Positions 6,335-39,769 of a DNA stretch of 64,000 nucleotides are shown piece after piece. How positions within the stretch are numbered: the stretch's first letter is position 1; each line of letters starts with the position of its first letter. Location: NCBI GenBank assembly GCA_964358315.1, contig CAYHOF010000002.1, positions 10,738 to 74,737 on the forward strand, written 5' to 3'. Both the position numbers and the translations under genes were made by a program. The notes beneath the pieces were generated by a model. The model made no database searches, had not been told where the DNA came from, and was given only the letters and a program-made list of their open reading frames with translations. The DNA is from an uncultured Methanosarcinales archaeon (GTDB lineage Archaea > Nanobdellota > Nanobdellia > Woesearchaeales > ARS49).

Positions 6335-7132
6335 ATGAGCACAGGTCTTGAAGCGATCGCGGACAAAGAATATATTGGGCGCGTCATCATCATAGGACAA
6401 GTCAACGGTCATGAAGTGATCGCGTACGCGGTCACAGGCCGCAGCGAGAGCAGCAGGGCGCGCGTCCTGAAGGAAGACCGAAATGTCATCCGAACCATGC
6501 CAATCGATAGTGAAACTATCAAAAAAGGCAATCCTACATTATTGCTATACGATTGCATACGCCATTGTGGTACAACATTTATCGTTAGCAACGGTGCGCA
6601 GACAAGTGAGATTACACGTGAAACAGCAGAACACCACATTAATCATACGTACACGATGCCGCGTGCTGTGCTCAATGACGTCTTTAGACGACCCATTATT
6701 CTCAACGGTATCGACGTCACGACGTACGAACCTGACGCACCTAACTTTACGCCGCGAATCAGCGGCATCATCACGCCACAAGGCGCGGGTATGTCCCTGA
6801 TAGAGAAATTTGGCGAAGGCGTCGCACAACATTATTTTGACATTCCTCTTGTTGATGGAAAAGGATTCATGCTGGCAACGTACGCCGGCAAGAACGTGCC
6901 TTCCGGCGAGCGGATCCCCCAACACCAAGGACGACCACTGGATATTGGCATCGCAGGGACGACGCCCCAAGAAGTTGCATGTGCACTTTACAATGCACTC
7001 GGACCCAAAGAAGGCACAGGAATTCTAAGTCCGGGCCAGGACTTCCGCGTCGGCGTCGCTGCTGTGTTCTACAACAGGAAGACGAACACGATGAGCAACC
7101 ACATAATCAACCGCCATGAGGTATCACAATGA
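6335..7132 (+). CDS. purO: IMP cyclohydrolase, archaeal PurO type.
   Basis: The N-terminus resembles PurO (GRVIIIGQVNGHEVIAYAVTGRS). It is the first gene of a purine biosynthesis cluster, and its GC is lower than the neighbouring genes. Confidence 0.55.
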   Translation: MSTGLEAIADKEYIGRVIIIGQVNGHEVIAYAVTGRSESSRARVLKEDRNVIRTMPIDSETIKKGNPTLLLYDCIRHCGTTFIVSNGAQTSEITRETAEHHINHTYTMPRAVLNDVFRRPIILNGIDVTTYEPDAPNFTPRISGIITPQGAGMSLIEKFGEGVAQHYFDIPLVDGKGFMLATYAGKNVPSGERIPQHQGRPLDIGIAGTTPQEVACALYNALGPKEGTGILSPGQDFRVGVAAVFYNRKTNTMSNHIINRHEVSQ

Positions 7133-8574
7133 ACAAGGAACAGGAATACAAGGAACGCATTCACGCATCGCTGGATCAGACGCTCGATTCAGGATTCGTC
7201 CCCGAGCTTGGGGAGTACAAGAAGGGCAAGGTGCGTGACGTCCATTTCTCGGGCGACAAGGTCGTGATGGTTGCGTCCGATCGCGTGAGCTGTTTTGATC
7301 ATGTGCTTTCGCGCCGCATTCCGTTCAAAGGCGCGGTCCTCAATGCGTTCAATGCATGGGCGATGGCGAACACCGCCGACATCATCGAGAACGCGGCTGT
7401 GGCGAGCCCTGACCCGAACGTCGTCGTTCAACGGCGGATGAAGAACGCCGGATTCGAATTCATCGTCCGTGGCTACGTCTGGGGCAGCATAGCTGCCGAT
7501 TATGAAGCGGGTAAGCGCGTGAAGAGCGGCGTCGCACTTCCTGACAACTTGCTGCGCTATCAGCGTTTGGAAACACCCCTTTTCACGCCGACGGACAAGG
7601 CCGAGAAAGGGCACGACGTTGACGTGACGCTCGACGACATCGCTAAAGTCCACGGGCCGGAGATGGCGCAACTCATGAATGGTGTCTCCATCGCACTGTA
7701 CAACCGCGGGGTCAGTATTGCCCAAAGTGCTCGTAAACTGTTGCTGGACACGAAGTTCGAGTTCGGCTTTGACGAGAATGGCGTGCTCTACCTGATTGAT
7801 GAATCTCTCACGCCAGACTCGTCGCGGTATGCTGACGCGCAGGAATACGCACAGAAATGGTCAGTGATAGCGCATGAGATGGACACGGGTGCTTACAAGA
7901 ACGTCAGCGACTTGCTCAAGAAAAAGCCTGAGCTGAAGATCACGGAGGAATCAAAACAATTCGTGCGTGACGTGCTCATCGAGAATGGTTACAAGGATGG
8001 ACAGAAGATCCCTGACCTCACGGACGAACAAGTCGTCGAGACCGCGTGGCGCTACATCAGCTCGTACGAGGCGCTCACGGGCAAGACGTTCGACTTCCAA
8101 CGCACCGACCTGCCCAACGCGAAAGCGCGCATCCTCAACAATCTCAAGAAAGCAGGCATGATCAAGGGAATGTGTGTCGTGCCGATCGTCGCGAGCAACC
8201 GCGGGACGGATCTCGAGTACTGGAGCAAGCTCGAGGAAGCGCTCAAGGAAAACGGCGTTCCATACGTCGCGCCCTTCTTTGGTTCGGCACACAAAGAAAC
8301 AGAAAAGGTCCTTGGCTACGTGGAGAAGATGGACACAAGCCTTGAACCGATCGTGTACATCACGATGGCGGGCCGCAGCAACGGCCTGGGTCCTGTCGTC
8401 GCAGGCAACACCAAGAACCCTGTGATCACGTGTCCTGTCTTCAAGGACGGCGTTGACTACCAAACAAACATCCACTCAAGTTTGCAGATGCCAAGCAAGT
8501 TGCCTATGGCGACGATCATCGATCCAGGCAACGCGGCACTGTACGCGAAGCGCATCATGGACACGCAGAGGTAA
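7129..8574 (+). CDS. purCE: Bifunctional SAICAR synthetase (PurC, long eukaryote-like form) fused to N5-CAIR mutase/AIR carboxylase (PurE), a PAICS-like protein.
   Basis: The N-terminal roughly 330 aa carry SAICAR synthetase motifs (KGKVRDVH, SDRVSCFD). The C-terminal roughly 150 aa carry PurE motifs (VVPIVASNRG, GSAHKE, AGRSNGLGPVVAGNT). The ATG overlaps the purO stop. Confidence 0.75.
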   Translation: MNKEQEYKERIHASLDQTLDSGFVPELGEYKKGKVRDVHFSGDKVVMVASDRVSCFDHVLSRRIPFKGAVLNAFNAWAMANTADIIENAAVASPDPNVVVQRRMKNAGFEFIVRGYVWGSIAADYEAGKRVKSGVALPDNLLRYQRLETPLFTPTDKAEKGHDVDVTLDDIAKVHGPEMAQLMNGVSIALYNRGVSIAQSARKLLLDTKFEFGFDENGVLYLIDESLTPDSSRYADAQEYAQKWSVIAHEMDTGAYKNVSDLLKKKPELKITEESKQFVRDVLIENGYKDGQKIPDLTDEQVVETAWRYISSYEALTGKTFDFQRTDLPNAKARILNNLKKAGMIKGMCVVPIVASNRGTDLEYWSKLEEALKENGVPYVAPFFGSAHKETEKVLGYVEKMDTSLEPIVYITMAGRSNGLGPVVAGNTKNPVITCPVFKDGVDYQTNIHSSLQMPSKLPMATIIDPGNAALYAKRIMDTQR

Positions 8575-8579: not shown

Positions 8580-10028
8580 ATGGCTGACGATCAAATTGTG
8601 CAGGCGAATCCTAATGTCTTGTCGGAGAGGTATGTGCCGTCTGAAACCAATGAAGTTTTCTCTGAGCGTGGCAAGAACATCGCCGAACGCGAGCTGTGGA
8701 TCGCGGTCATGAAGGGACAAAAAGAACTTGGTGTTCCGATCCCTGGCGAGGATATTGTGAAGTTCGAGAATGCCAAAGACAATGTTGACCTCGCCATGAT
8801 CAAGGAGATCGAACGTAAGACGCGTCACGATATCAAGGCAAAGATCGAAACGTTCGTCAAGACAGCAGGTGCAGGCGAATATTTGCACAAAGCCATGACG
8901 AGCCGGGACCTGACTGATAACGTGGAACAGATGCAGAACTTACGGGCATCAAAGATCATACTAGGTCGTTATGTCGGCGTGGCACGCCACATGATCGACA
9001 AGGTCGAGGAGTACAGAGACATCCTGCTGACCGCGCGCACGCATCACCAAGCAGCCCAACCAACGCTCTTCGGTAGACGGATGGCGATGTGGGCTGATGA
9101 GTTGCTATTCCACATCGGGGAGATGGAACACTTCATCGATGTGTACCCGCTACGCGGCATCAGGGGCCCTGTTGGCACGCAGTTCGACATGCTTTCGCTG
9201 CTCGGCAGCGCTGAAAAAGTAGACCGGCTCGAAATACTCGTCGCAAAACATCTAGGGTTCGCAAAGACGCTTGATGCGACAGGACAAGTGTATCCACGAT
9301 CGCTTGATTATGCACTCGCCGCACGACTGGTCGGTCTCGCGGCGGCGTGCGAAAACTTCGGCATCGGCGTACGCTTGATGTCTGGCTACGAATTGTGTGA
9401 AGAGGGCTTCCAGGAAGGCCAAGTCGGCTCCAGCATCATGCCGCACAAGATGAACACGCGGAGTTCAGAGCGTATTTGCGGCGCAGGCAAGCTTGTCAAA
9501 ATGTACAGTGTCGGCGCGATGTTGCTCTCCGGCGACCAATGGGAGGAAGGCGATGTCTCTTGTTCGATCACGCGACGCGTGGTGCAGCCAGACCAGTTCT
9601 ACGCATCGGAAGCGGTGACCGAGACTACCATGACCGTGCTCAACGAGATGGGCGTCTACCCGGAAATGATCAAGGCAGAATTCAAGAAATACCTGCCGTT
9701 CTTGGCATCGACGGAAATGCTGACGATCGCCACAAAAGCAGGCATCGGTAGGGAGCAGGCGCATAAGATCATCAAACAGCATGCGGTGGGCGAAGCGATT
9801 CGTATGCGCAAGACAGGAGAACTCCCGTATCTTGCAAACCGCCTAGCGCAAGACCCAGTGTTCCAACAACACGGCATCACCGAGAAACAATTGCAGTCTG
9901 TGCTTGATGATACGACGCACTTCATTGGCAATGCGAACAAGCAAATGGACGCGGTGAAGACGAAAGCGCAAGTCTTCATCGACAAGTACAAGGACGCCGC
10001 GGCATACGAGCCACGACCGATCCTCTGA
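8580..10028 (+). CDS. purB: Adenylosuccinate lyase.
   Basis: The 482 aa protein has the fumarate-lyase family signature (MTSRDLTDN, GSSIMPHKMN). Confidence 0.85.
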   Translation: MADDQIVQANPNVLSERYVPSETNEVFSERGKNIAERELWIAVMKGQKELGVPIPGEDIVKFENAKDNVDLAMIKEIERKTRHDIKAKIETFVKTAGAGEYLHKAMTSRDLTDNVEQMQNLRASKIILGRYVGVARHMIDKVEEYRDILLTARTHHQAAQPTLFGRRMAMWADELLFHIGEMEHFIDVYPLRGIRGPVGTQFDMLSLLGSAEKVDRLEILVAKHLGFAKTLDATGQVYPRSLDYALAARLVGLAAACENFGIGVRLMSGYELCEEGFQEGQVGSSIMPHKMNTRSSERICGAGKLVKMYSVGAMLLSGDQWEEGDVSCSITRRVVQPDQFYASEAVTETTMTVLNEMGVYPEMIKAEFKKYLPFLASTEMLTIATKAGIGREQAHKIIKQHAVGEAIRMRKTGELPYLANRLAQDPVFQQHGITEKQLQSVLDDTTHFIGNANKQMDAVKTKAQVFIDKYKDAAAYEPRPIL

Positions 10029-10096
10029 ACCCATCACCTACCAGTGATTTCGTTTTTCGGGCAAGATTTTAATAGACGGAGACAAGGGAGCACATC

Positions 10097-10591
10097 ATGG
10101 CGAAGAAGATCAAGAACACCGCGAAGAAATCCGCAAAGCCAGTCGTCATCAAGGAAGCTGCTGTCGAGAAGAAGGACGCCGTCAAGCATGACGTGAAGCC
10201 ATCGCTCTTCAAGGCAGGCATCGTGGCGTTCGTGGTCATCGCAGTCATCAATTTCGTCGTGAACGGCATCTTGCTCGCACCGGTGTGGAGCGCGATGGAA
10301 GTCGCGGGCGTGGTGCGCGAAGGCCAGGGCGGCCAGATTGCGCTCGCAGGCATCTTCGGCCTCATGCTCGTCATGGGCTTCGTCCTTGCGTGGCTTGTCA
10401 AGCGTGCGCAGCTCAAGGGCGCAGGCGCTGCATTGGGCTTTGGCGTCGTGATCGGCATCTTCATAGCGGTTCCTGACGTCGCAGGATTCCTGTTCTATCG
10501 CGTGCCTGCCATCGTGCCGATCGTGGGGCTTGTGGCCAACATCGTGGGGTTCGCGCTCGCGAGCATGGCTGCCTGGTTCGTCAACAACTAG
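10097..10591 (+). CDS. Membrane protein with a Lys-rich N-terminus followed by 4 TM helices.
   Basis: The hydrophobic segments were read directly from the sequence. No family was recognised. Confidence 0.45.
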   Translation: MAKKIKNTAKKSAKPVVIKEAAVEKKDAVKHDVKPSLFKAGIVAFVVIAVINFVVNGILLAPVWSAMEVAGVVREGQGGQIALAGIFGLMLVMGFVLAWLVKRAQLKGAGAALGFGVVIGIFIAVPDVAGFLFYRVPAIVPIVGLVANIVGFALASMAAWFVNN

Positions 10592-16849: not shown

Positions 16850-17227
16850 ATGCGTCTGCCCAAACGGTATGGGGAATCGAAAGAAACGAAGTGCCCGTTC
16901 TGCTCGAAACCCGCGATGTCGATCAGCGTGCAGCAAGTGCCGGTGTGCAAGAACCACGTCGACACCAAGCTCCCTGACATACGGTGCGCGTGCGGCAGCT
17001 GGCTCGAGATGCGGGAAGGCAAGTGGGGCCCGTTCTTCTTGTGCGACCGTTGCGGCCCTGTCTCGTTCAAGAAAGGCATCGAGATGCTCGGCTTCATGAA
17101 ACCGAAAGACGCGATACAGACCACGTCCCCATCATCGACCAAGCAGGCCACGACGACCAAGCCCGCGCCTGCGCGCCAACCCGTCACCCAAGTCGTGCGG
17201 AGCGACGACCCGCGGTTCTTTGATTGA
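16850..17227 (+). CDS. Zinc-ribbon protein of the topoisomerase-type C4 finger family.
   Basis: It has the CPFCSK...C...H and CACGSW...GPFFLCDRCG patterns. Confidence 0.5.
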   Translation: MRLPKRYGESKETKCPFCSKPAMSISVQQVPVCKNHVDTKLPDIRCACGSWLEMREGKWGPFFLCDRCGPVSFKKGIEMLGFMKPKDAIQTTSPSSTKQATTTKPAPARQPVTQVVRSDDPRFFD

Positions 17228-17229: not shown

Positions 17230-18219
17230 TTAGCGTGGAAGAACGCCGTAGCGTTGTCCATAGCGTCGCGGCAATGAATCACATGCCTCACTATACAACT
17301 CTTTATCGACCTGTCTCAGCCACAGCAGCATTGCACCAACACATTCCGGCACAACAGGCAAGTTCCCTGTGATAACATCACACATATCCTGTGGTCTTGC
17401 AAGTGTCAGAACGCCATCATGGCAGCTTCCATCGCTCGCGGAGAACATTGAGTCATGAATCACGCTTGCGGGCAACAATATTTGAGACTGATAGTACGCT
17501 GCGACACCTGTTGTCCCTTCGACAAAGCCAAGAAGCGATGGGCTCAGGACAGGGATACCAAGTTCCTCATTGAGCTCACATGCGAGTGTCCTCGTTGATA
17601 GGGCAAGGAAATCGTTGGCGCGTGATTCACGCTCCGATCTGAACAACGCTGCAGGATCACCATCGACGAACCCACCGACGGCATGATAGCAACCCGCATA
17701 GGATGCCGTAGCGCTGCGACGAAACAGCAACAAGGAGCCAGAACTATCAAAGAGAAGAATGCCCACGCCAAACGGCCTGCTGAAGAAGGCAAGTGGATCG
17801 GCATACTGCTGCTCACCCGCATGGATAAGGCGATCATACAGAGCGTCATCCGTGTGAGCAGGTAATCCTGTCGCCGCCCGCTCGTGGTATATTGTGGGAC
17901 CGAACCTCAGGACAAGGTGGTGCTTCCCGCCCGCGCCATCAGAACAATCCCAGAATGAACGATGACCGTCAAAGCGAAGCTTCCGATCGTCATACCCGCC
18001 TTTGTTGATGAGCCCCGCACAGAGAGGAGCATGAACGCGCTCCTCCAAGGCGAGATCGAAATCGCGGGAAAGAGTCGGCGCTGCTGAAGGTGAAACAAAA
18101 GGCAAACATGATGCAACTTCAGGTAACACTGCCATAGCATTGCCCTTGACGACGTGGAGCGCATCGTAGTCTGCCATGGCTGCAATCATGTAAAGATGTT
18201 CCATACAGCATGACCTCAA
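17230..18219 (-). CDS. Nudix hydrolase-like protein with an uncharacterised N-terminal domain.
   Basis: It has a Nudix-box-like segment GGFVDG...RTLACELNEELGI. It lies immediately downstream of the Ski2-like helicase on the same strand. Confidence 0.5.
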   Translation of the reverse strand: MRSCCMEHLYMIAAMADYDALHVVKGNAMAVLPEVASCLPFVSPSAAPTLSRDFDLALEERVHAPLCAGLINKGGYDDRKLRFDGHRSFWDCSDGAGGKHHLVLRFGPTIYHERAATGLPAHTDDALYDRLIHAGEQQYADPLAFFSRPFGVGILLFDSSGSLLLFRRSATASYAGCYHAVGGFVDGDPAALFRSERESRANDFLALSTRTLACELNEELGIPVLSPSLLGFVEGTTGVAAYYQSQILLPASVIHDSMFSASDGSCHDGVLTLARPQDMCDVITGNLPVVPECVGAMLLWLRQVDKELYSEACDSLPRRYGQRYGVLPR

Positions 18220-18243
18220 AAAACCCTTAAAAAGCGTTCCGGA

Positions 18244-20154
18244 CTACAGGTTCACTTTGACGATGTCGCGATCCACGCGTTCCATTGCGCGGAAGATCCT
18301 TTCACGGAGATCCTCGCTGTGCGTGGCGTGGCGGATCTGGCGCAGCAGGTCGATCATGCGGCGGAAGAGGTGGACGATGTCGCCTTCCTGCACGTCGGTG
18401 AGGGCGAGCAGTTCGTCAAAGGTTGCGCCATTGCTCCAGCGCGACACGATGCCGGCGAGCTTGCGCAGCGCCATCTTGTCGAGTTCTTTGAGCACGATCG
18501 GGTTGCGGTCGAGGTTTGCGAGGATGGGCTTGACGATCGCGTCCGATCCTTTGAGCGAGTACTTGTCCTGCCTGCGTTCTTCGTAGATGATGGCTGCCGC
18601 GACGACGAGGATCTGCTCTTCGGTGAGTTCTTGCCACAGGTCGGTCGAGAAGATCTCGCCGACCAGGATCTCGTAGGAGTAGATGCTGAGCAGGAAGTGG
18701 CCGCGTTCGGTGATGCTGTTGTCCTCGTTGAGATAGCCGAGCTTCTTGAGCATTCTGAGCTTGTTGTTGTAGGCTGCCATGATGCGGATGTGGCCTTTCT
18801 CCTGTTTGCGGATGAAGTAGTCGAAGTTGCTCTTGAGGATGACCTCGACCTCTTCGGAGTTGTGCTGGCTGACGAGGTGCAGTGCCGTGTTGTAGGACAT
18901 GCGGAACTGGGAGATGATGGGCTCGGTGTCTGCGGACGTGAAGCGTTTGATGCGCTCAAGGTCCGCGGACTGGCGGTCGATGACGCCGATCGCGAACCCT
19001 TCCTTGTCGATGCCACGACGCCCTGCGCGACCTGCAAGTTGGAAGTATTCCTTGCTGTTGAGGTAGCGGAAGTTCATGCCGTCGTACTTCTCGAGCGAAT
19101 TGAACACTGTGGCGCGCGCAGGCAGGTTGAGGCCGACCGCGAACGTCTCTGTCGTGAAGAGCACATAGATCAGGCCGTCGGCAAAGAGCAGCTCGACCGC
19201 TTCCTTGATCGAGGGCAAGAGGCCTGCATGATGCACACCGATGCCTTTGGAGCACCACTCGCGCACTTTGCGGACGCTATCAAGCGATTTCTGATCCTCC
19301 GGGATGACGTCACGGAACCTGTTCTGCACCTTGATGCGCTGTTCTGCGCTGAGGAAGTTGAAACTCTTGGCGAGATAGCCTGCCTGGCGTTCGCAGTCCA
19401 TGCGGCTGAAGATGAAGTACAGGCACGGCAGCCAGCTGCGCGCCTTGAGGTCGCCCACGATCTGCTCAGGCCGGGGTTTCTGCACGCGTTCCTGCCTGCG
19501 ATTGTAGATGTTGCCGCCATGACGGTGGTGTTTCATCGACGTGGCGAGCTCATCAAGCGTCGTGATGCCTTCCTCCGCGTCATAGACAAGATGCGTGAGC
19601 GGCACCGCGCGCTTGTCGAAACGCACGACGTCGACAGGATGGTCCTTGATGCTGCTGATCCATGCCGCGAACTGCACCGCGTTCGGGATGGTCGCACTCA
19701 GGCACAAGAAACGCACGAATTTGGGCGAGAAGATGACGCTCTCCTCCCAGATCGTGCCGCGCTCGATGTCCGAGATGAAGTGGATCTCGTCGAAGATGAC
19801 GTGTGAGACCGTGCCGATGAGCTCGTCGCGCGCGAGCAGCATGTTGCGGTAGATCTCGGTCGTCATGATCAGGATCTGCGCGCTCGTGTTGACCTGCACG
19901 TCGCCCGTGATCAGGCCGATCGCGTCCTTGCCATAGCGTCCTGTGAAGTCGCGGTACTTCTGGTTGCTGAGCGCCTTGATGGGCGCGGTGTAGATGACGC
20001 GCTTGCCCAGCTTGATGTTCTTGTCGATCACGTAATCGGCGATGAGCGTCTTGCCAGTGCCTGTCGCGGCAGAGACCACGACGCTGTTGCCTTTCTCGAT
20101 GCTCGCGATCGCCTCGACCTGGAACGGGTCGAGCGTGAACCCTTGGAATTGCAT
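18244..20154 (-). CDS. Ski2/Mtr4-like superfamily 2 RNA helicase with a C-terminal DSHCT domain. It has no arch insertion.
   Basis: Motifs are AATGTGKT (I), DEIH (II), SAT (III) and LAGRAGRRG (VI). The C-terminus (RWSNGATFDELLALTDVQEGDIVHLFRRMIDLLRQI ... RDIVKVNL) closely parallels the Mtr4/Ski2 DSHCT. Confidence 0.8.
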   Translation of the reverse strand: MQFQGFTLDPFQVEAIASIEKGNSVVVSAATGTGKTLIADYVIDKNIKLGKRVIYTAPIKALSNQKYRDFTGRYGKDAIGLITGDVQVNTSAQILIMTTEIYRNMLLARDELIGTVSHVIFDEIHFISDIERGTIWEESVIFSPKFVRFLCLSATIPNAVQFAAWISSIKDHPVDVVRFDKRAVPLTHLVYDAEEGITTLDELATSMKHHRHGGNIYNRRQERVQKPRPEQIVGDLKARSWLPCLYFIFSRMDCERQAGYLAKSFNFLSAEQRIKVQNRFRDVIPEDQKSLDSVRKVREWCSKGIGVHHAGLLPSIKEAVELLFADGLIYVLFTTETFAVGLNLPARATVFNSLEKYDGMNFRYLNSKEYFQLAGRAGRRGIDKEGFAIGVIDRQSADLERIKRFTSADTEPIISQFRMSYNTALHLVSQHNSEEVEVILKSNFDYFIRKQEKGHIRIMAAYNNKLRMLKKLGYLNEDNSITERGHFLLSIYSYEILVGEIFSTDLWQELTEEQILVVAAAIIYEERRQDKYSLKGSDAIVKPILANLDRNPIVLKELDKMALRKLAGIVSRWSNGATFDELLALTDVQEGDIVHLFRRMIDLLRQIRHATHSEDLRERIFRAMERVDRDIVKVNL

Positions 20155-20274: not shown

Positions 20275-21024
20275 ATGGAACAGAGCTTGGAACGAACAGT
20301 ACAACGCGCCCAAGAATCACACGTTGCGCCAGACCAACGCACATTCACAGTAGAACAAGCGATCAGCATCATCAACGAAGCAGAAGCGCTCCAACGTTTC
20401 GATAAGGATGTACAGGATGAGCATCGACTGCATCTTGAGGGCACGCTGGCGACAACGCCGATGTCGCGCGACGATCTCACGACGCTGGCGCAAAAAGCGG
20501 GCGTTGCCGCACACTACACCGATCGCGTGCTTGACAAGCGATATCCATCATTCGAAGAACAGATGAATGATCTTCGTATGCTTGGCTCAAACCTGAACAG
20601 TGATGTTCGCATGAAGACGTATTTAGATGCGGTCCGAACTATGTTCGGACAAGTCCACCAGCAAGCCTTCCCTCAAGGGCAAGAAACGTTAGAGGTAACA
20701 CGTGATTACGGTAATGGACGAGAGTTTTCACGATGCATACAAACAAGTGTCGAACGTGTTATCCGGCCAGGCATGATTGCGCGCTGGTGCGGCGCAAAGC
20801 TAACAAAAGTCAATGAAGTCCACAAGAAGTACATAGAAGCTGCAACAGTAGCAGTGTTTAGTACGCCTAATATGTGCCAAATAACACTACACGACCCTGT
20901 GTTCACCAAGCTCATCGCAGCACCACTTGCCGAACTTAATCGCGATGTGGCGAAATATTTTTCTGCCATCAACGTGACGCATAAATACGTACCCGGTAAC
21001 AGTCTCGAAGGCTTGAAACTCTAG
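20275..21024 (+). CDS. Hypothetical protein (249 aa) with GC lower than its surroundings.
   Basis: ORF with a leaderless-type promoter (TTTATATATG at about 20244-20253). Confidence 0.45.
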   Translation: MEQSLERTVQRAQESHVAPDQRTFTVEQAISIINEAEALQRFDKDVQDEHRLHLEGTLATTPMSRDDLTTLAQKAGVAAHYTDRVLDKRYPSFEEQMNDLRMLGSNLNSDVRMKTYLDAVRTMFGQVHQQAFPQGQETLEVTRDYGNGREFSRCIQTSVERVIRPGMIARWCGAKLTKVNEVHKKYIEAATVAVFSTPNMCQITLHDPVFTKLIAAPLAELNRDVAKYFSAINVTHKYVPGNSLEGLKL

Positions 21025-21026
21025 TC

Positions 21027-21497
21027 TCAATACAGAATCCCGACGACAACGCCACTGATCGTCTCAAAGCGGACAGGGTCCGTGTCTGGTTCTTGGTTGT
21101 TGTCGCCTTTGGTGGTCGCGTACCATCCTTGTGCGTCCTCGCCTACTGCAATGACCCTGTGGATGATGACAATGCCGCCTCTCCTGTAGGAGATGATGTC
21201 GCCCGCGTTGATGTCGTCTATGCTTGCGGGCGGCAGTTCGAGCGAGACCGTGTTCTTGTTGAGGGTGGGCTCCATCGAGTGTGTGTCTTGCACGCGTGCG
21301 AAGACAAGGCCGCTGCGGTTGATGACGGCACGGTCTGAGAACACCTTGATGTCCGCCATGCTAAGATGGTCTGCTGGCGTGTCGAGCGCAATTGCTGCGT
21401 CCGCGAAAGGAAAACGGCTCTCGTCCGGCTGCAGCGTGAAGGGCACAAGGCCTACGCACAACAGTGCCACTGCTAGATACCCCTTTTTCATACCCAC
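21027..21497 (-). CDS. Signal peptidase I (archaeal/ER type, S26B).
   Basis: It has an N-terminal TM anchor, the SMEPTL motif and the GDNN region. Confidence 0.7.
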   Translation of the reverse strand: MGMKKGYLAVALLCVGLVPFTLQPDESRFPFADAAIALDTPADHLSMADIKVFSDRAVINRSGLVFARVQDTHSMEPTLNKNTVSLELPPASIDDINAGDIISYRRGGIVIIHRVIAVGEDAQGWYATTKGDNNQEPDTDPVRFETISGVVVGILY

Positions 21498-21638
21498 TAA
21501 CCCCAGGAATGGAAACGTATCCTCTCCTTATATGGCTTGTGTTCGTTGTCGACACAAAACAACAACGAGAATTAAGAGCGACCACACCAGTATACGTTTT
21601 ACTAACATTTATATACTGAATATGTCTCAAGAAAAAGC

Positions 21639-24077
21639 ATGCGTCGGGTTGTCGTCGTCCTGTCTTTGCTGCTCGCACTAGCATCGTCTGTCCTTGCCGC
21701 GCCTGCGACAGTCACTATCTCTCCTGTGTCGCTGTATGAGACCACGCAACGGCCCTTCACGCTCACCATCGACAACGACAACATCGGTGCGCAGGCGATC
21801 ACTGCAGTGGACATCACGACGCCCAACATGACCATCGATGCCGTGCGTCCGCTCAGTGGCTGGAGCGAGAACCACACGACGACCACGATCCGCTGGTCTG
21901 ATGGCGTTGTCGCAGAAGGCGCACTGCAGCGGCTGTACTACAACGCGAGTGCGGCCATCGTCACGGCAGACCAGACCATCACGATTCCGGTCATCGCAAC
22001 CACAGCTGGCGGCACGCAGAACACCGATGTCCAGATCACGATCCTCAACGATCCAAGCACGCCGAGCGTGACGTCGAACTTCCCGCAAGACGGCTCCTAC
22101 ATCCGCGAAGGCAAGACCGACCAGCGCGTCTTCGTCGACGCGCAGGACCCGCAGACCGGTGTCAAGAACGCGGACTTCTCCTACTGGGATTGCGCGAGCA
22201 ACACCAGCCACACGAACGTGGCGCTCACGTGCACCGCAGGCGTGTGCGAAACGATTCTCGACGTCTCGTCGTTCGATGAAGGCGACCGGATGTGCTTCGA
22301 ATTCCTCGTCTACAACAACGCGCTCGACGCGACCAACCTCTCCGGCAGCGCGGGCTTTGATGGCACCGCGCCCGCAATCGACGTCATCGCGCCCGCCGAC
22401 GGAGCGTATGGCGCCAACAACACTATCTTCACGTACAATGCGAGCGACAACCTCGCACCTACACTCTCCTGCGACCTGCTGCTGGATGGCACGATCATCG
22501 ATTCGGTGACGGCGACAAACGCCGCCATCACCACGACCACCTACGATATGTCATCGGCATCTGAAGGCACGCACGCGTGGAACCTGCAGTGCACTGACTG
22601 GGTCGGCTGGCTCACGGCGTCAGGCACGCGCAGCATCATCGTGGACAAGACGCCGCCGACCATCACGCTCAATAGTCCTGCGAACGGATCGACCATCCCC
22701 GACGGCATGATTATCGATATCTCGGTGATGGATAACTACGAAGTTGACACCGTGACCTATAGTGCCAGCCGCAATGCGTCCGACTTGCCTGAAGGCCTCA
22801 ACACGCTCACCGTGACCGCGACAGACAAAGCAGGCAACGTTGCGACAATCGGTTACGCATTCACTGTCGATCGGACCGCGCCGACCGTCACGCTCATCGC
22901 GCCGGCAGACAACAGCACGGTGGATGTCGCGCTGGGCTTCGAGTTCAGCGCCACTGACGCATTCGACACGTCACCGACCTGCACGCTCAGCGCTGATGGC
23001 AGCGCGCTCGCGACACAGGATGTCACGAACGGCACGCCGACCAACATCACGCAGACGCTCCCTATCGCGATCCACACATGGCAGGTGTCGTGCACAGACG
23101 ATGCAGGCAATGTCGGGACGAGTACATCCTGGACCGTCAACGTCACCGACCTCAGAGGGCCGACCATCATCTCTGACGTGGTCTACGTGGCACGCACCGA
23201 GGAATTCCCCTTCAGCGCAACGATCACCGACCCGAGTGGCGTGGCGAGCGCTGGTGCCGCGGTCGACGGATCGGCCATCACGTTCAGTGGCGTGAGCCCG
23301 ACTTACAGCGGCTCGATCCTGATGGATATCGGCACGCCGCTTGGCAGCCACGACCTCACGCTCGACGCGACAGACACGTACGGCAACCCGGGCGTGCTTG
23401 TCGATGCGTTCACGCTCATCCAAGGCTACACCATCACACTCAGCGCCAGTCCTGCTTCTGTCCTGCCAGGCGAGAGCGTCACGGTCGCTGGCACGGTCGT
23501 GCTTGACGATGGCGCTGCGGCGCCAGAACAGTCCCTCCTGCTCTTCCTGCCGGGCGAGACGGTGAACATCTCCATCGTCAACGGCACGTTCAGCACGTCG
23601 TTGAGCGCGCCAGGCGCAGGCACGTACACGATCGTTGCGTCCATCATCTCGTCCGAAGGCTTCGCACACAACAAGACGACGACGCTCACTGTCAACAACC
23701 CGCCTGCGCCAAGCGGTGGTGGCGGAGGCGGCGGTGGCCGTCGCAACAGCGGGTCGTCTGGTGTTGTGCAACCTCCTGCGCCGCAGGAGACTCCGCGCGT
23801 CAACCCTGCGCCGCTCTTGCCAGACGAGGATGAAGACAAGCCAGAGGAAGATGACGACAGCGGCAAGACTGAAGATACTGATGCAGGCGAAGTGATTCCT
23901 GAGGACGAGCCGCGCGTGCCCCTCGGCGTGGGTGCGTCCACGTCCTGGTTCGACAACGTGGTCGGCAATGTCTGGGCATGGCTCCTGCTCATCATCATCG
24001 CGATAGCGCTGGGCATCGCGGCCTTCAAGCGCAAGAAGAAGGACAACATCGACTGGGACGGCTATTTCGAGAAGTAG
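21639..24077 (+). CDS. Large secreted surface (S-layer-like) protein with tandem Ig-like beta domains. It has a Gly8/Pro-rich and acidic stalk and a C-terminal TM anchor with a KRKKKD tail.
   Basis: It has a signal peptide (MRRVVVVLSLLLALASSVLAAPA), repeated Thr/Asn-rich beta-rich modules, GGGGGGGG, and a DEDEDKPEEDDD stalk. The C-terminus reads WAWLLLIIIAIALGIAAFKRKKKD. Confidence 0.65.
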   Translation: MRRVVVVLSLLLALASSVLAAPATVTISPVSLYETTQRPFTLTIDNDNIGAQAITAVDITTPNMTIDAVRPLSGWSENHTTTTIRWSDGVVAEGALQRLYYNASAAIVTADQTITIPVIATTAGGTQNTDVQITILNDPSTPSVTSNFPQDGSYIREGKTDQRVFVDAQDPQTGVKNADFSYWDCASNTSHTNVALTCTAGVCETILDVSSFDEGDRMCFEFLVYNNALDATNLSGSAGFDGTAPAIDVIAPADGAYGANNTIFTYNASDNLAPTLSCDLLLDGTIIDSVTATNAAITTTTYDMSSASEGTHAWNLQCTDWVGWLTASGTRSIIVDKTPPTITLNSPANGSTIPDGMIIDISVMDNYEVDTVTYSASRNASDLPEGLNTLTVTATDKAGNVATIGYAFTVDRTAPTVTLIAPADNSTVDVALGFEFSATDAFDTSPTCTLSADGSALATQDVTNGTPTNITQTLPIAIHTWQVSCTDDAGNVGTSTSWTVNVTDLRGPTIISDVVYVARTEEFPFSATITDPSGVASAGAAVDGSAITFSGVSPTYSGSILMDIGTPLGSHDLTLDATDTYGNPGVLVDAFTLIQGYTITLSASPASVLPGESVTVAGTVVLDDGAAAPEQSLLLFLPGETVNISIVNGTFSTSLSAPGAGTYTIVASIISSEGFAHNKTTTLTVNNPPAPSGGGGGGGGRRNSGSSGVVQPPAPQETPRVNPAPLLPDEDEDKPEEDDDSGKTEDTDAGEVIPEDEPRVPLGVGASTSWFDNVVGNVWAWLLLIIIAIALGIAAFKRKKKDNIDWDGYFEK

Positions 24078-24893
24078 ATGGTATTCGAACAATTCCTCGA
24101 GGTCGACCGCGTCAAGCGGCACGTGCTCTCGATAGCAGGCCTTGGCGTGCTGTACGTGGGCGTGAGCTTCCTTGTGGCAGCGTACTTCTTCGGTCGTGAC
24201 GTGTCTGTGGCCATGCTCTTCTCGATCACCATCCTGCTCCTGCCCTCTGCGCACGCGCTCGTCGCGTCCGAGGAGAAGATCGAGCGGCGCACAGGCACGC
24301 GGCACTTCTTGCGCAACCACAAGGACATCTTCCGCACCTACCTCCTCTTGTTCGTCGGCATCCTGGTCGCGTACATCGCGCTGGGCCTCGTGTTCGGTGA
24401 CGGCATCTTCACCTACCAGCTCGGTTTCCTGGGCGCACGCGGTGACATAACAGGCGACATTGCGGCAAATGCGCGCGGACACGTGCCCACGCCGGGCTCC
24501 GTGCTTGGCGTGGCGACGCAGAACGCCATCGTGATCATCATCGGCTTCGTCCTTTCGTTGTTCTTCGGCGCAGGCGCGCTGTTCCTCATCACCCTCAACG
24601 CCTCGGTCTTCGCCGCATTCGTGGTGCACGTGAGCAGGCAGGTCGCGAACCCTGCAGGCATCATAGGATTGTTCCTCATCCACACGATCCCTGAGATGGC
24701 AGGGTTCCTTGTCGCATCCATCGCAGGCGGCGTCGTCTCGCGCGCCATCATGAAGGAACGTCTTGGGAGCGATAAGTTCCGCAACGTGATGAAGGACGCG
24801 CTCGTGCTCCTCGCCATCGCCGTGGGCATCATCATCATCGCCGCAGTGCTCGAACAGTATGGCACCGCCCCCCTCGTCAAGTACGTGGTCTGA
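24078..24893 (+). CDS. SpoIIM/DUF95 family membrane protein.
   Basis: It has 6 TM helices and the pattern typical of DUF95. A paralog lies at 51459..52292. Confidence 0.55.
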   Translation: MVFEQFLEVDRVKRHVLSIAGLGVLYVGVSFLVAAYFFGRDVSVAMLFSITILLLPSAHALVASEEKIERRTGTRHFLRNHKDIFRTYLLLFVGILVAYIALGLVFGDGIFTYQLGFLGARGDITGDIAANARGHVPTPGSVLGVATQNAIVIIIGFVLSLFFGAGALFLITLNASVFAAFVVHVSRQVANPAGIIGLFLIHTIPEMAGFLVASIAGGVVSRAIMKERLGSDKFRNVMKDALVLLAIAVGIIIIAAVLEQYGTAPLVKYVV

Positions 24894-28531: not shown

Positions 28532-28885
28532 TTATGCTTTGCGCATCACAAATGTGGAAAGCCCTTCGATGTGCCGCACGGGCGTCGTGAAGAGGAACTC
28601 ACGGAACGTGTTGTCCACGTGCACGCCATGGCGCATGAGGTGCGTGGCGAGTTCGTGGTAGAGCTTGCGGCCTTCCTCGTCGAGGTCGGTGAGCACCATG
28701 CAGTCCTTCGTGAGCGCGGCGACGCGCTCCACCACCTCGAAGAGCGCGCCTTCAAGAGGGATGACGTTCATGATCCCAAGGTCGGCAAGGGAACGCACGT
28801 CCTTCTTGCCTTCGACGATGATGAGTCCTTTGTACTGGCGCAAGCGTTCGAGGTGCGCCTGCAGTTCTTTCTCGTCTACTCTCAT
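28532..28885 (-). CDS. Small Toprim-domain protein (COG1658-like, RNase M5-like fold).
   Basis: The catalytic Toprim residues are present in LIIVEGKKD and VLTDLDEEG. The start is taken at ATG 28885..28883, with a TATA about 25 nt upstream. The longer TTG-start ORF is discounted. Confidence 0.6.
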   Translation of the reverse strand: MRVDEKELQAHLERLRQYKGLIIVEGKKDVRSLADLGIMNVIPLEGALFEVVERVAALTKDCMVLTDLDEEGRKLYHELATHLMRHGVHVDNTFREFLFTTPVRHIEGLSTFVMRKA

Positions 28886-28908
28886 CCACCTGACACCTCC
28901 GCACAAGC

Positions 28909-28916
28909 TATTTAAA
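28909..28916. promoter_or_regulatory. Palindromic TATA element (TATTTAAA) placed to drive both the Toprim gene on the minus strand and the primase gene on the plus strand.
   Basis: It lies 24-31 nt from the minus-strand start at 28885 and 34 nt from the plus-strand ATG at 28950. Confidence 0.45.
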
Positions 28917-28949
28917 GTTACGCGCAACACCATTTCTCGACGGGGGAAT

Positions 28950-30353
28950 ATGGTCATCCACATCAGCACATTGCTCAAGCACTACAAGCGTCCGGAAGTG
29001 CAGCGCGCGCTGGTCGACGCCTCGCAAGACAGGGAAGTGGGCGTGTTCTACGCAGGGAACAACACCTACGGCAAGCGTCCGGACGTGCTCAATTATCCGC
29101 GCGACGTCATGGAGTTCGTGACTAAAGGCGCGACGAGTTTCCACATCAGCGAGGAGCGCTGGAGCAATCCGCTTGGCATCGTGACTGGCGCGTCCCGTCG
29201 GGACCAGGACGACCTGCGCATCGGCTGGGACTTGATCATCGACATCGACTGTCCGTGGCTCGACTACAGCAAGGTCGCTGCGCACGTGATCGCGCAGAAA
29301 TTCCGCAGCATGGGGATCGGTTGTTTCACGATGAAGTTCTCAGGTAACCATGGCTTCCACATCGCAATACCATTCGAGGCGTTTCCTCCGACAGCGACGG
29401 TCGAGGGCAAGGAGCGTGACGTCAAGGACCTCTTCCCCGAGGGACCAAGAAAGATCGCGGCATACCTGCAAGATGAGATCCGCACACCGCTTGGCAGATT
29501 GCTCGTCGAGAAGTTCACGCTCGATGGCATCAAGAACACGACGGGAAAGACGCACGTCGAGCTTGTCAAGCAAGGACCGAAGGGCCCGTACGTCGATCCG
29601 TTCTCGCTGCTCGCCATCGACACTGTGCTCATCGCGTCACGCCATCTCGTGCGCGCGCCCTACAGCATGCACGACAAATCCGGCCTTGTGAGCATCCCGA
29701 TCGACCCGGACACGGTCATCGATTTTGACAAGAAGACGGCCGCGCCGGACGTGATAACGTTCGAGAGGAAATTCCTTGACAGATCGCGCGCGAAACCCAA
29801 TGAAGCACGTCTGATCTTCGACAACGCGTTCGCGCACAAGCTTCCTTCATCACCGTTGCGTGTGCTCAACGAGGACATCGAGAAGGCGATGAAACACCAA
29901 GAGGACACGATACCGACGGAGGCGCTCGCAGAAAGCATGTTCCCGCCCTGTATGCACAACATCAAGAAAGGCCTCAAGGATGGCAAGAAGCGCGCCATGT
30001 TCGCCGCCGTGAATTTTCTCGTGCTCGCAGGCTGGGAGTATGACAAGATCGAGGAATGGCTGCTGCAGTGGAACAAGAACAACCAGGAGGCGTTGCGCGA
30101 GGTGCACATCAAGGGCCACATCCGGTATCACAAGGCGAACAAGAAGAAAATGCCGCCGCCACGCTGCCGGCAGTACTATAAGGACCTCGGCGTGTGCCAA
30201 CCAGACAGCCTCTGTGACCGCATCAAGAACCCGATCCAGTACGCCAAGCGACGGGCGTTCATGGCCAGCATGGACCAGAAGCCGAAAAGGAAGAAGTCCA
30301 CCGACGAGAACGTGAAAGGCGAAGTGGAGATAGGGACGATGAAAGGCGACTAG
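28950..30353 (+). CDS. priS: DNA primase: a catalytic small subunit PriS fused to the Fe-S C-terminal domain of the large subunit (PriL-CTD).
   Basis: The PriS motifs are LIIDIDCPW and FSGNHGFHI. The C-terminal roughly 130 aa have the PriL-CTD signature FPPCM...LAGW...PPPRCRQYY...GVC...SLCDRIKNPIQY. The start is taken at ATG 28950, in frame with ORF 28665. Confidence 0.8.
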   Translation: MVIHISTLLKHYKRPEVQRALVDASQDREVGVFYAGNNTYGKRPDVLNYPRDVMEFVTKGATSFHISEERWSNPLGIVTGASRRDQDDLRIGWDLIIDIDCPWLDYSKVAAHVIAQKFRSMGIGCFTMKFSGNHGFHIAIPFEAFPPTATVEGKERDVKDLFPEGPRKIAAYLQDEIRTPLGRLLVEKFTLDGIKNTTGKTHVELVKQGPKGPYVDPFSLLAIDTVLIASRHLVRAPYSMHDKSGLVSIPIDPDTVIDFDKKTAAPDVITFERKFLDRSRAKPNEARLIFDNAFAHKLPSSPLRVLNEDIEKAMKHQEDTIPTEALAESMFPPCMHNIKKGLKDGKKRAMFAAVNFLVLAGWEYDKIEEWLLQWNKNNQEALREVHIKGHIRYHKANKKKMPPPRCRQYYKDLGVCQPDSLCDRIKNPIQYAKRRAFMASMDQKPKRKKSTDENVKGEVEIGTMKGD

Positions 30354-30444: not shown

Positions 30445-30621
30445 GGGCGGCTTTCTCCTCGAAAGTATCGGTACGTATCGACGATATGTGCCTCAAATAC
30501 GCGACAAGCCTGAGAAGGGACATTCTCAGTACAGTCTGTTTAATCACATTCTGTTTCTACGAAAACGTCCCGCGAAAGGCAGACTTGCACTGGCCGAGCC
30601 CACCATAACGGGCAAACCAAT

Positions 30622-31590
30622 ATGCCAACAAGACGAAACCCACGAAAATCGAGTATGCAGTTCTGGCATAGGCGCCGCTCTCCTCGCATGACCGCAAGGA
30701 TCCGCACGTGGGTCGGCACCAAAGACGCGAAACTCCTGGGTTTCTGCGGCTACAAGGTCGGCATGACCCACATCATCCAGATTGACAACCGTTCCACATC
30801 GCTTTCTAAGGGCGAAGAAATCGCCACTCCTGTGACAATCATCGAAACCCCGCCTATGAGAATCATCGGCTTCAAAACGCTCAAGAACACGTACGGCGGC
30901 AAACAAGTCGCGCAGTTCAAGTGGGTCGACAAGACCGAGAAATACCTCGCACGCGCCATCAACGTGCCAAAGCAAGCAAAAGCAGTCGATATCAACGCGC
31001 AAGGCGTCGTCGCCGTGCGCGTGCTCGTCCAGACCCAGCCACACCTCATCAATCTCAAGAAAACCCCTGACATCGTCGAACTCGGCGTCGGCGGCACCGT
31101 CGAGCAGCAGCTCGCCTACGCGAACAGCATGCTCGGCAAGGAAATCAAGCCGACCGACGTGTTCGTCGAAGGCCAACAAGTCGACGCGCACAGCGTCACC
31201 AAAGGCCACGGCCTGCAAGGTCCTGTCGCACGTCACGGCATCATGATCCGCTCGCACAAGGCAGAGAAGACCAAGCGTGGTCCTGCAACGCTCGGTCCGT
31301 GGGACGGCAACCGTTCCTACCGTGTCGCCCACCAGGGCCAGACCGGCTTCCACCGCCGCACCGAGCTCAACAAGTGGATCGTCAAGATCGAAGCAAAACC
31401 TGAGGAAGTCAACCCCAAGGGCGGCTTTGTCCACTACGGCAACGCGAACGTCGCGTGCATGATGCTCAAGGGCAGCATCGGCGGCGCAAGCAAACGACTT
31501 ATCACACTCACACACGCGCACAGACCGCGCGCGAACATCCCGAACAAGGCACCGGAGGTCACGCATATCAGCGTGGCATCAAAACAATGA
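30622..31590 (+). CDS. rpl3: Ribosomal protein uL3.
   Basis: Diagnostic L3 sequence. Confidence 0.9.
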   Translation: MPTRRNPRKSSMQFWHRRRSPRMTARIRTWVGTKDAKLLGFCGYKVGMTHIIQIDNRSTSLSKGEEIATPVTIIETPPMRIIGFKTLKNTYGGKQVAQFKWVDKTEKYLARAINVPKQAKAVDINAQGVVAVRVLVQTQPHLINLKKTPDIVELGVGGTVEQQLAYANSMLGKEIKPTDVFVEGQQVDAHSVTKGHGLQGPVARHGIMIRSHKAEKTKRGPATLGPWDGNRSYRVAHQGQTGFHRRTELNKWIVKIEAKPEEVNPKGGFVHYGNANVACMMLKGSIGGASKRLITLTHAHRPRANIPNKAPEVTHISVASKQ

Positions 31591-32393
31591 ACCTCAAGAT
31601 CATGACGATGGCAAAGACGGAGAAAGGCACCAAGAAGATGCCAGTCCAGTTCGACGAGCCAGTGCGCGTCGACCTCATCCGCCGCGCGGTCGAATCCGTC
31701 TTGTGCAACATGCGCCAGGCATACGGCGCAGACCCCATGGCAGGCAAGCGCCAGGCCGCTAAGATCTCGCGCCGACGCCGCGACTACAAAGGCGCGTACG
31801 GCCAAGGTATCTCCCGTGTCCCGCGGAAGATCATGAGCCGCAACGGCACGCAGATGAACTGGCAGGGCGCATTCGCGCCAGGTACGAAGGGCGGTCGTCG
31901 CGCGCACCCGGCAAAGGCAGAACGCACGCTCTCCAAGGGCATCAATATCAAGGAACGACGCAAGGCGATCCGCAGCGCGCTCGCAGCCACGCTCGACAAG
32001 GATGTCGTGACGTTGCGCGGCCACAAGATCCCGGCAAGTTATCCATTCATCATCGATGCCGATTTCGAGAACCTCGACAAAACCGTCAAGGTCATCGAAG
32101 CACTCACGACGCTGGAACTCGGCGCCGACCTCGAACGCGCCGGCATCCGCAACATCCGCGCAGGCAAGGGCAAGAACCGAGGCCGCCCCTACAAGGGACG
32201 CAAGGGTCCGCTCATCGTCGTCTCGAAATCCTGCCCCCTCGCGAAGGCGGCAAGCAACATCCCGGGCGTGGATGTCGTCGAGGTCAGCAGGCTCAACGCC
32301 GCGCTCCTCGCGCCAGGCACGCACGCAGGACGCCTCACACTCTACACTGAAGCAGCGATCGAGCGCATGGACAAGGAGGGACTGTTCCGATGA
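31587..32393 (+). CDS. rpl4: Ribosomal protein uL4.
   Basis: L4 pattern. The ATG overlaps the uL3 stop (ATGA). Confidence 0.85.
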   Translation: MNLKIMTMAKTEKGTKKMPVQFDEPVRVDLIRRAVESVLCNMRQAYGADPMAGKRQAAKISRRRRDYKGAYGQGISRVPRKIMSRNGTQMNWQGAFAPGTKGGRRAHPAKAERTLSKGINIKERRKAIRSALAATLDKDVVTLRGHKIPASYPFIIDADFENLDKTVKVIEALTTLELGADLERAGIRNIRAGKGKNRGRPYKGRKGPLIVVSKSCPLAKAASNIPGVDVVEVSRLNAALLAPGTHAGRLTLYTEAAIERMDKEGLFR

Positions 32394-32641: not shown

Positions 32642-32642
32642 T

Positions 32643-33810: not shown

Positions 33811-33812
33811 AC

Positions 33813-35608: not shown

Positions 35609-35610
35609 CC

Positions 35611-39768: not shown

Positions 39769-39769
39769 A

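Follow-up and report, generated by a model that had tools for sequence, protein, structure and literature searches.

The N-terminal regions of the eukaryotic RNA helicases Mtr4 (Dob1/SKIV2L2) and Ski2 bind Rrp6/Rrp47, Trf4/Air2, or Ski3. Residues R1026, R1030, and E1033 of Mtr4 make contact with the bases of the RNA and modulate unwinding; the corresponding place in Hel308 is taken by a stacking Trp. Yeast Mtr4 lacking its arch unwinds in vitro at a level near that of the wild type (PMC4267639). Among archaea, a 2024 survey of 294 genomes recognized Hel308, ASH-Ski2, and Brr2-like proteins as the only Ski2-like helicases and found the COG4581 group to be "exclusively composed of eukaryal sequences" (PMC10946056). 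Among human Nudix proteins, NUDT22 is described as the outlier, its Nudix box not being of the conventional kind (PMC5688067). We analyzed a 64,000-nucleotide stretch of archaeal DNA (the window; contig CAYHOF010000002.1, positions 10,738 to 74,737) in which a gene for an Mtr4/Ski2-type helicase is followed on the same strand by a gene for a NUDT22-like protein of the Nudix fold. The original prediction took the two for a candidate RNA-decay module. Our results indicate that the pair forms no conserved module of this kind; the two genes are probably functionally independent and became neighbors by chance within a single narrow lineage of DPANN. The helicase gene and the domains of its product, a member of helicase superfamily 2 (SF2), are as follows.

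18244..20154, minus strand: archless, N-terminally minimal Mtr4/Ski2-type (COG4581-like) SF2 helicase, 636 residues, ATG start
19675..20127, minus strand: RecA1/DEAD domain, residues 10 to 160, with motifs I (GTGKT), Ia, Ib, Ic, II (DEIH), and III (SAT)
19012..19251, minus strand: RecA2/Helicase_C core, residues 302 to 381, with motifs IV to VI (QLAGRAGRRG)
18766..18825, minus strand: winged-helix region (residues ~444 to 463), the insertion point of the arch/KOW domain in Mtr4 and Ski2, with nothing inserted
18259..18723, minus strand: DSHCT/helical-bundle (ratchet) domain, residues 478 to 632, with the ratchet helix at residues ~590 to 610

The open frame extends upstream of the helicase ATG by 11 codons only. 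The protein is a genuine stripped-down archaeal relative of Mtr4 and Ski2, which has the DSHCT domain and lacks both the arch and the N-terminal extension. Pfam profile DSHCT (PF08148) matched with an E value of 2.5e-29 and 102.7 bits (cutoff, 22.7 bits) over profile positions 1 to 170 of 172, and the C-terminal motif quoted in the original prediction as resembling Mtr4 and Ski2 is present verbatim (WSNGATFDELLALTDVQEGDIVHLFRRMIDLLRQI). The other Pfam matches of the helicase were DEAD (E value of 2e-25), Helicase_C (E value of 6.5e-07), and ResIII. The SF2 Ski2-like motifs that had been noticed at first reading are all present and are invariant in 30 homologues (GTGKT at residues 32 to 36, DEIH at 122 to 125, SAT at 153 to 155, and Q372 followed by GRAGRRG at 375 to 381).

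Comparison with proteins of known structure by phmmer gave as the best match an archless construct of human MTR4 (PDB 6c90; 383 bits), to which query residues 6 to 632 aligned without a break (chain residues 71 to 727). Full-length yeast Mtr4 (4u4c) aligned in three pieces, in which query residues 444 to 463 span chain residues 534 to 808, i.e., the ~270-residue arch, which the helicase alignment skips; RecA2 of the helicase matched that of Mtr4 with 144 bits. The arch domain (PF13234) gave no Pfam match in the helicase at E values of ≤0.01. Together with the contiguous alignment to the archless construct, this bears out the earlier remark that the arch insertion is lacking. The N-terminal docking region is also missing, since query residues 5 to 6 correspond to residue 147 of full-length yeast Mtr4; the protein starts with MQFQGFTLDPFQ, directly at RecA1, and has no Cys cluster and no N-terminal zinc finger. 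With the N-terminal region gone, every known adaptor-docking element is missing from this helicase.

The phmmer scores were 354 to 383 bits for Mtr4, FRH, and Ski2 (~354 to 367 bits for Ski2), ~141 bits for Hel308, and ~118 bits for Brr2. Entry 7ujb ("DEAD/DEAH box RNA helicase"), which we presume may be ASH-Ski2/Eta, scored 73 bits. A model of the helicase was built with AlphaFold2 (AF2) from 30 homologues (predicted local distance difference test score [pLDDT], 88.2) and compared with the PDB by Foldseek. Ranks 1 to 34 were all Mtr4, FRH, or Ski2, with 6c90 again at the top (E value of 1.9e-51; TM score relative to the query [TMq], 0.86; 34% identity), and the model superposed on MTR4 and Ski2 at TMq values of 0.83 to 0.87. 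Hel308 entered the list at rank 35 (E value of 1.7e-29; 23 to 24% identity; TMq, 0.76). As judged from alignment scores and from the fold rank of the model, the helicase is nearer to Mtr4/Ski2 than to Hel308, Brr2, or ASH-Ski2 as presumably represented by 7ujb.

Two other identities were considered for the helicase and rejected. Hel308-type NCBIfam models scored 124 to 169 bits, against cutoffs of 887 to 1,216 bits, and the ratchet helix has R599 and D602 and no Trp. ASH-Ski2 (Eta) was discarded because no zinc-finger domain precedes the helicase core.

In DPANN archaea, archless DSHCT helicases are frequent. Among protein clusters, the best 120 were 49 to 80% identical to the helicase over ~100% of its length (one being partial), nearly all had 619 to 670 residues, with 629 to 670 in all but a few, and all contained DSHCT; the typical size in the family is ~630 to 650 residues. 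Named members among these 120 are called "DEAD/DEAH box helicase" (Woesearchaeota, Aenigmarchaeota, and Nanoarchaeota) or, in JGI records, "superfamily II RNA helicase." With each species represented by one genome, 80 helicase loci were retrieved, and the lineages named in them (Woesearchaeota, Nanoarchaeota, Nanohaloarchaeota, and Nanohalarchaeota) are all DPANN; many of the 80 records are labeled only "archaeon" or "uncultured Methanosarcinales archaeon," the latter label being taken as unreliable. These 80 species-level loci overturn the earlier notion that such a helicase is rare outside eukaryotes. The family also contradicts the view of COG4581 as a eukaryote-only group. Literature searches for DSHCT or COG4581 in archaea gave nothing beyond the 2024 survey, and the family, although visible in databases, is apparently undescribed in the literature searched. 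To seek a conserved partner of the helicase, flanking open reading frames (ORFs) of 82 helicase loci were clustered. No conserved neighbor was found among these 82 loci, the most frequent cluster (ThrRS) occurring in 10 of them. Across DPANN, the helicase gene is nearly universal, resembles a single-copy gene, and lies among housekeeping genes.

Residues of the ratchet helix were mapped according to the alignment with yeast Mtr4 (4u4c).

Yeast Mtr4 R1026: window helicase H595; family consensus R
Yeast Mtr4 R1030: window helicase R599; family consensus R
Yeast Mtr4 E1033: window helicase D602; invariant in the family (30 homologues)

In the same 30 homologues, positions 598 and 599 are both R in the family consensus, and R598 is conserved in at least 90%. 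Since archless yeast Mtr4 unwinds nearly as well as the wild type, the native archless helicase is plausibly active, and by analogy with Mtr4 it may plausibly be a 3'-5' RNA helicase.

The neighboring gene and its Nudix box are as follows.

17230..18219, minus strand: NUDT22-like two-domain Nudix-fold protein, 329 residues from a TTG start, probably 324 or 315 residues
17554..17676, minus strand: split non-canonical Nudix box, consisting of GG182-183, an insert of ~30 residues, and CE215LNEE219LG

Public annotations start this gene at ATG 18204 (324 residues) or at ATG 18177 (315 residues), and the NCBI name of the 315-residue version is "NUDIX hydrolase [Nanoarchaeota archaeon]." The protein consists of an N-terminal beta domain (residues ~15 to 140) and a Nudix fold (residues ~145 to 320). 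Its description at first reading as a two-domain Nudix-box protein encoded on the helicase strand was right as to the strand and the two domains, but the box is split, non-canonical, and of the NUDT22 type, with Cys in place of the Arg of the canonical box. A relaxed regular expression for the canonical box (GX5EX7REUXEEXGU) had no match in the window, this ORF included. Profile searches had been suggested for both genes; the DSHCT profile hit the helicase, as reported above, whereas the Pfam NUDIX profile gave 20.5 bits, below its cutoff of 21.1 bits, with the match confined to profile positions 1 to 41.

HMMER, run exhaustively against 1.84 billion representatives, returned 44 relatives of the Nudix protein, mostly of 285 to 370 residues, and a word-indexed protein search with the Nudix profile returned 4 proteins. 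In this family, E219 is invariant and G183 and E215 are conserved in at least 90% of the members; in a pairwise alignment, E215 and E219 pair with the two glutamates of the NUDT22 sequence QEICDE. For comparison with NUDT22, a profile was built from 28 relatives, leaving out fish NUDT22 (P0161) and three other distant outliers. This profile matched human NUDT22 with an E value of 3.2e-17, the next Nudix protein being at 1e-03. An earlier profile containing P0161, a family match that is a fish "Uridine diphosphate glucose pyrophosphatase-like" protein, had given an inflated NUDT22 match (E value of 3.6e-33).

The AF2 model of the NUDT22-like protein had a pLDDT of 92.2. Its best Foldseek matches were human NUDT22, with both domains spanned (E value of 1.6e-17; TM score relative to the target [TMt], 0.67). 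There were 263 PDB matches at E values of ≤0.001, and the 50 listed among them all have the Nudix fold. NUDT12, Dcp2, NudC, and X29/NUDT16 appeared as generic Nudix-fold matches with E values of 3e-07 to 3e-05, ten orders of magnitude above that of NUDT22, and with TM scores mostly of 0.3 to 0.4, rising to ~0.6 relative to the small X29. Profile and model thus identify the neighbor as a Nudix-fold protein of the NUDT22 type and not of the decapping type.

Elsewhere, members of this family lie among genes for nucleotide-sugar metabolism. In 13 of 16 further metagenome loci, retrieved with a 12-sequence alignment, and in locus L100 (14/17 in all), the Nudix gene is directly flanked by genes for a DegT/DnrJ/EryC1 aminotransferase, an NDP-sugar (nucleoside diphosphate sugar) epimerase/dehydratase, a sugar-1-phosphate nucleotidyltransferase, or an FdtA/WxcM-like isomerase; the three metagenome loci without such neighbors are short contigs. 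The homology to NUDT22, the conserved glutamates, and these neighborhoods suggest that the NUDT22-like protein probably hydrolyzes nucleotide sugars. No description of prokaryotic NUDT22 homologues was found in the literature searched. The clustered homologues are at loci L084 to L100 (e.g., L084 5962-6849, L086 5878-6762, L089 3783-4703, and L100 2731-3810), and a second, small canonical Nudix gene lies close by in L086 and L084.

The space between the two genes and the gene that bounds the pair on the other side are as follows.

18205..18243, minus strand: helicase-to-Nudix spacer CTTTTTAAGGGTTTTTTG, read directly from the sequence; the gap is 25 to 66 nucleotides depending on the start codon
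16850..17227, plus strand: zinc-ribbon-like gene, 125 residues, convergent, bounding the insertion site of the NUDT22-like gene

The distribution of the pair was examined by running a hidden Markov model (HMM) of the Nudix family against the six-frame ORFs of 91 helicase loci, 75 of which have at least 900 nucleotides downstream of the helicase. The Nudix family was found beside the helicase in three genomes only, among ~88 distinct loci: the window, L002 (helicase 80% identical to that of the window), and L101/L102 (73%). The relatives share a syntenic block that includes Hef, helicase, zinc-ribbon gene, a 120-residue membrane protein, an M50-like protein, and TraB. In this same block, no Nudix gene follows the helicase in L001/L003 (79%), L004 (70%), or L103 (72%). 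A convergent gene directly follows the helicase in L106 (71%), L107 (66%), and L108 (60%), and none of the more distant helicase loci among the 91 has the Nudix gene. In a neighbor-joining tree of the helicases, Nudix carriers and non-carriers are interleaved; P0001, for example, carries the Nudix gene, and P0002, with a helicase 86% identical, does not. The synteny with the Nudix gene that was expected in relatives was thus essentially not found outside one narrow, patchy clade.

The three Nudix-like copies are 29 to 31% identical to each other, the corresponding helicases 73 to 80%, and the other genes of the block 43 to 88%. The helicase and zinc-ribbon genes converge, and the Nudix-like gene sits exactly between their 3' ends; in relatives without it, the zinc-ribbon gene directly abuts the helicase 3' end. 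In L001, the zinc-ribbon gene at 9947-10306, to which the window gene is 63% identical, lies 24 nucleotides past the helicase stop. Seen from the Nudix family, no helicase lies within 6 kb in any of the 16 further metagenome loci, and none does in L100, L109, or L110, which together make up 18 distinct loci other than those of the pair. In 5 of 83 loci, an ORF with a canonical Nudix box lies no more than 6 kb from the helicase; the positions and orientations are scattered, and by a rough estimate the frequency is about that expected by chance. The spacer CTTTTTAAGGGTTTTTTG has oligo-T tracts that resemble an archaeal terminator, and a TATA-like element, TTTTTAAG, lies ~26 nucleotides upstream of the ATG at 18204. 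These features would be compatible with termination after the helicase gene followed by re-initiation.

Several accounts of the locus were weighed. In the RNA-decay module of the original prediction, the Nudix enzyme would remove a 5' cap or pyrophosphate and the helicase would deliver the RNA to a nuclease. Activity on RNA 5' ends is indeed established for some Nudix enzymes (RppH, NudC, Dcp2, and NUDT12/16), decapping enzymes are present among the weak structural matches, and in the window, as in two related genomes, the two genes are adjacent on the same strand. We nevertheless hold this module to be very improbable: the adjacency is confined to 3 of ~88 distinct helicase loci and is missing in sister genomes, none of the 18 other distinct Nudix-family loci has a helicase within 6 kb, and canonical Nudix ORFs come near the helicase at roughly chance frequency. 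Moreover, the protein is of the NUDT22 type, and the conserved context of its family is nucleotide-sugar metabolism; since helicases of the Mtr4/Ski2 type act at 3' ends, a 5'-end enzyme is mechanistically unneeded. The claim that the helicase and the Nudix protein act together on RNA is abandoned on these grounds. A DNA-repair or replication-restart helicase, analogous to Hel308 and partnered with the divergent Hef nuclease-helicase, is improbable but deserves more weight than the module. Hef is directly upstream of the helicase, and divergent from it, in L001, L002, L004, L101, and L103 (4.8 kb away in the window), but this adjacency is restricted to the close clade of helicase loci, the Hef count being a slight undercount because the neighbor scan missed the Hef annotated in L101/L102. 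The best NCBIfam matches of the helicase are Hel308-type "ATP-dependent DNA helicase" models, with scores far under their cutoffs, and the overall ring architecture is common to Hel308 and the helicase. By sequence (383 versus 141 bits) and by fold (E values of 1e-51 versus 1e-29), the helicase is much closer to Mtr4/Ski2. The C terminus is DSHCT, and the ratchet Arg and acidic residue are of the Mtr4 type instead of the Hel308 Trp. The characterized bacterial homologue HelY requires an RNA loading strand, according to a passage of PMC8931766 that cites Uson 2015. An antivirus defense pair, such as a Hachiman-like helicase with a Nudix effector, has next to nothing to recommend it: several PADLOC models of HamB and PDC-M23B helicases match the helicase at 50 to 92 bits, but these matches are partial, cover the SF2 core only, and are far weaker than the Mtr4 match. 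PADLOC gave no match for the Nudix-like protein, the zinc-ribbon protein, or the 249-residue neighbor, the locus has no HamA-like partner, and defense fits poorly with a near-universal, single-copy-like helicase in housekeeping surroundings.

Several observations weigh against the independence of the two genes or against the roles proposed for them. All three carriers have the Nudix-like gene immediately downstream of the helicase on the same strand, with gaps of 25 to 66 nucleotides in the window and of 40 and 46 nucleotides in the others, and co-transcription and a lineage-specific functional link are possible. P0123 and P0126, the two closest relatives of the window Nudix-like protein, are in housekeeping contexts, outside sugar clusters, so the evidence from sugar clusters is that of more distantly related members. 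A sugar-1-phosphate nucleotidyltransferase gene is present in the window and in L002 at a distance of ~6 kb but is not adjacent. The preference of the helicase for RNA, finally, is suggested by homology only.

The preferred reading, two functionally independent genes, has the following mechanistic content. The helicase would be a housekeeping member of a DPANN-wide minimal Mtr4/Ski2-type family in which a winged helix and a DSHCT/ratchet bundle accompany RecA1 and RecA2. Judging from its homologues, the enzyme most likely engages RNA at a single-stranded 3' tail and moves 3'→5' with ATP. The RNA would be threaded past the Mtr4-like ratchet helix (R599 and D602), with unwinding of structured RNA or of RNA:DNA hybrids, and the role of the enzyme is likely in RNA processing or decay. 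Candidates for a nuclease partner, if there is one, are the archaeal exosome and a beta-CASP RNase. The NUDT22-like pyrophosphatase most likely cleaves UDP- or NDP-sugars to nucleoside monophosphate and sugar-1-phosphate, and catalysis would depend on the conserved glutamates of the split Nudix helix. Its gene appears to be an accessory, fast-evolving one, which may have been inserted once into the helicase/zinc-ribbon gap in an ancestor of the clade and then been lost repeatedly. Removal by this enzyme of NDP-sugar (UDP-Glc-type) 5' caps from RNA in the clade carrying the pair is less likely; if it took place, the gene pair would gain a real lineage-specific link.

The window represents part of the core chromosome of a DPANN archaeon. 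Its housekeeping genes include those for PCNA, Hef, a fused PriS-PriL primase, a ribosomal-protein operon, SecY, MCM with an intein, PolD DP1 and DP2, Cdc6/Orc1, and TFE. The subset of window ORFs that was scanned included no exosome gene. The window encodes two candidate RNases of the metallo-beta-lactamase type. One, at 2350-3738 (plus strand), 15 kb from the helicase, is RNase J-like, of the beta-CASP group, and contains an RMMBL domain; in other genomes, its gene shows no linkage to the helicase. The other, at 62802-63851 (minus strand), is tRNase Z-like. Two helicase loci have a neighboring RNase J-like gene, and none has a neighboring tRNase Z-like gene.

The zinc-ribbon protein encoded at 16850-17227 (plus strand) is cysteine-rich (CPFC...C...CxC...CxxC) and has no match in Pfam or PADLOC. 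It is 52 to 77% identical among close relatives, and its gene is always convergent with that of the helicase. Eight other distinct genomes (9 loci, two being the same contig) have a homologue near the helicase, and some of these loci are distant (L036, L047, L065, and L075).

On the other side, the helicase and Hef are divergently transcribed in all close relatives examined, L103 included. In the window, the two are separated by a 4.8-kb block (20275-24893), which encodes the 249-residue protein (no Pfam match), an S26-like signal peptidase, a SpoIIM-like membrane protein, and an 812-residue surface protein of the Ig-like (Big) type, which has a poly-Gly/acidic tail and a C-terminal hydrophobic stretch resembling a membrane anchor. 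The block is missing from L001, L002, L004, and L101, and it looks like a lineage-specific insertion of cell-surface genes. In L103, a single 156-residue gene lies between the helicase and Hef. It is Imm5-like (an immunity-protein family) and is found at L103 3197-3667 and L104 2205-2675 (both minus strand), which represent one close relative. The presence of this gene in the Hef-helicase gap is a further sign that intergenic gaps around the helicase take up accessory insertions.

Further features were recorded elsewhere in the window. The MCM gene (45376-49068, plus strand; 1,230 residues) contains an intein with a LAGLIDADG homing-endonuclease domain inside the AAA+ domain. The fused primase (28665-30353, plus strand; 562 residues) combines the PriS and PriL domains in one protein, and a fused PurC-PurE (SAICAR synthetase-AIR carboxylase) is encoded at 7129-8574 (plus strand). 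An AT-rich gap (59800-60400) adjoins Cdc6/Orc1 (58605-59819, minus strand) and the PolD DP1/DP2 genes, with GC content down to 0.49 in the 60- to 62-kb composition window. A 27-nucleotide inverted repeat, CACCCCTTGATTTCCTCTGGAACAATA, flanks this gap at 59925-59951 and 60222-60248, and its core, TTCC..TGGAA, is similar to an archaeal origin-recognition box. The gap is probably the replication origin. From 30600 to 42000, the AT skew is strongly positive (0.24 to 0.37), over the same extent as the plus-strand ribosomal-protein operon (L3 at 30622-31590 and L6 at 38001-39194, followed by SecY at 42428). This skew is a purine-rich coding-strand bias and no anomaly.

A helicase-Nudix RNA-decay module is therefore not real as a conserved system and should not be propagated. 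Naturally archless, minimal Mtr4/Ski2-type helicases are an overlooked archaeal family, widespread in DPANN, for which databases have no label more specific than "DEAD/DEAH box helicase" or "superfamily II RNA helicase." Including this family would alter the picture of the origins of exosome helicases, and the DPANN helicase would offer a compact protein for mechanistic study. That the DPANN archless helicases are the closest prokaryotic relatives of Mtr4/Ski2 and act as cofactor helicases for the archaeal exosome or for a beta-CASP RNase is a tentative proposal that we consider rather unlikely; if it were true, they would provide a minimal model of exosome helicases as they were before the arch and the adaptor-binding regions. 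The archaeal NUDT22 homologues found in clusters for nucleotide-sugar modification support a nucleotide-sugar role and hint at the origin of the NUDT22 family.

Compared with described systems, the NUDT22-like protein resembles human NUDT22 (5lor and 5lf9), a UDP-glucose/UDP-galactose pyrophosphatase deposited in the PDB as "Uridine diphosphate glucose pyrophosphatase." Both have an N-terminal beta domain ahead of the Nudix fold, and both have a split non-canonical Nudix box with two conserved glutamates. Unlike NUDT22, with which it shares ~18% identity, the window protein belongs to a small archaeal family (Nanoarchaeota and Aenigmarchaeota names). The helicase has the Ski2-like SF2 core and the ring architecture in common with Hel308/Hjm and ASH-Ski2 (Eta). 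It differs from Hel308 in its low score and identity and in missing the NCBIfam cutoffs widely, and from ASH-Ski2 in having no N-terminal zinc finger. Mycobacterial HelY, a protein of ~900 residues, is a prokaryotic helicase of the Ski2/Mtr4 type and would provide the best functional analogy. With eukaryotic Mtr4 and Ski2, the helicase shares the four-domain ring and all of the SF2/DExH motifs, with ~34% identity to human MTR4 over 671 aligned columns, and with yeast Mtr4 it shares an Arg and an acidic residue at the ratchet positions R1030 and E1033. It differs from both in lacking the arch/KOW insertion and the N-terminal region, the two features by which the eukaryotic proteins are functionally defined, and in having a DPANN archaeon as the host. 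The engineered archless MTR4 of 6c90 is its top match by sequence and by fold and is contiguous with it from end to end; unlike that construct, the archless form is here native and is conserved across an archaeal family.

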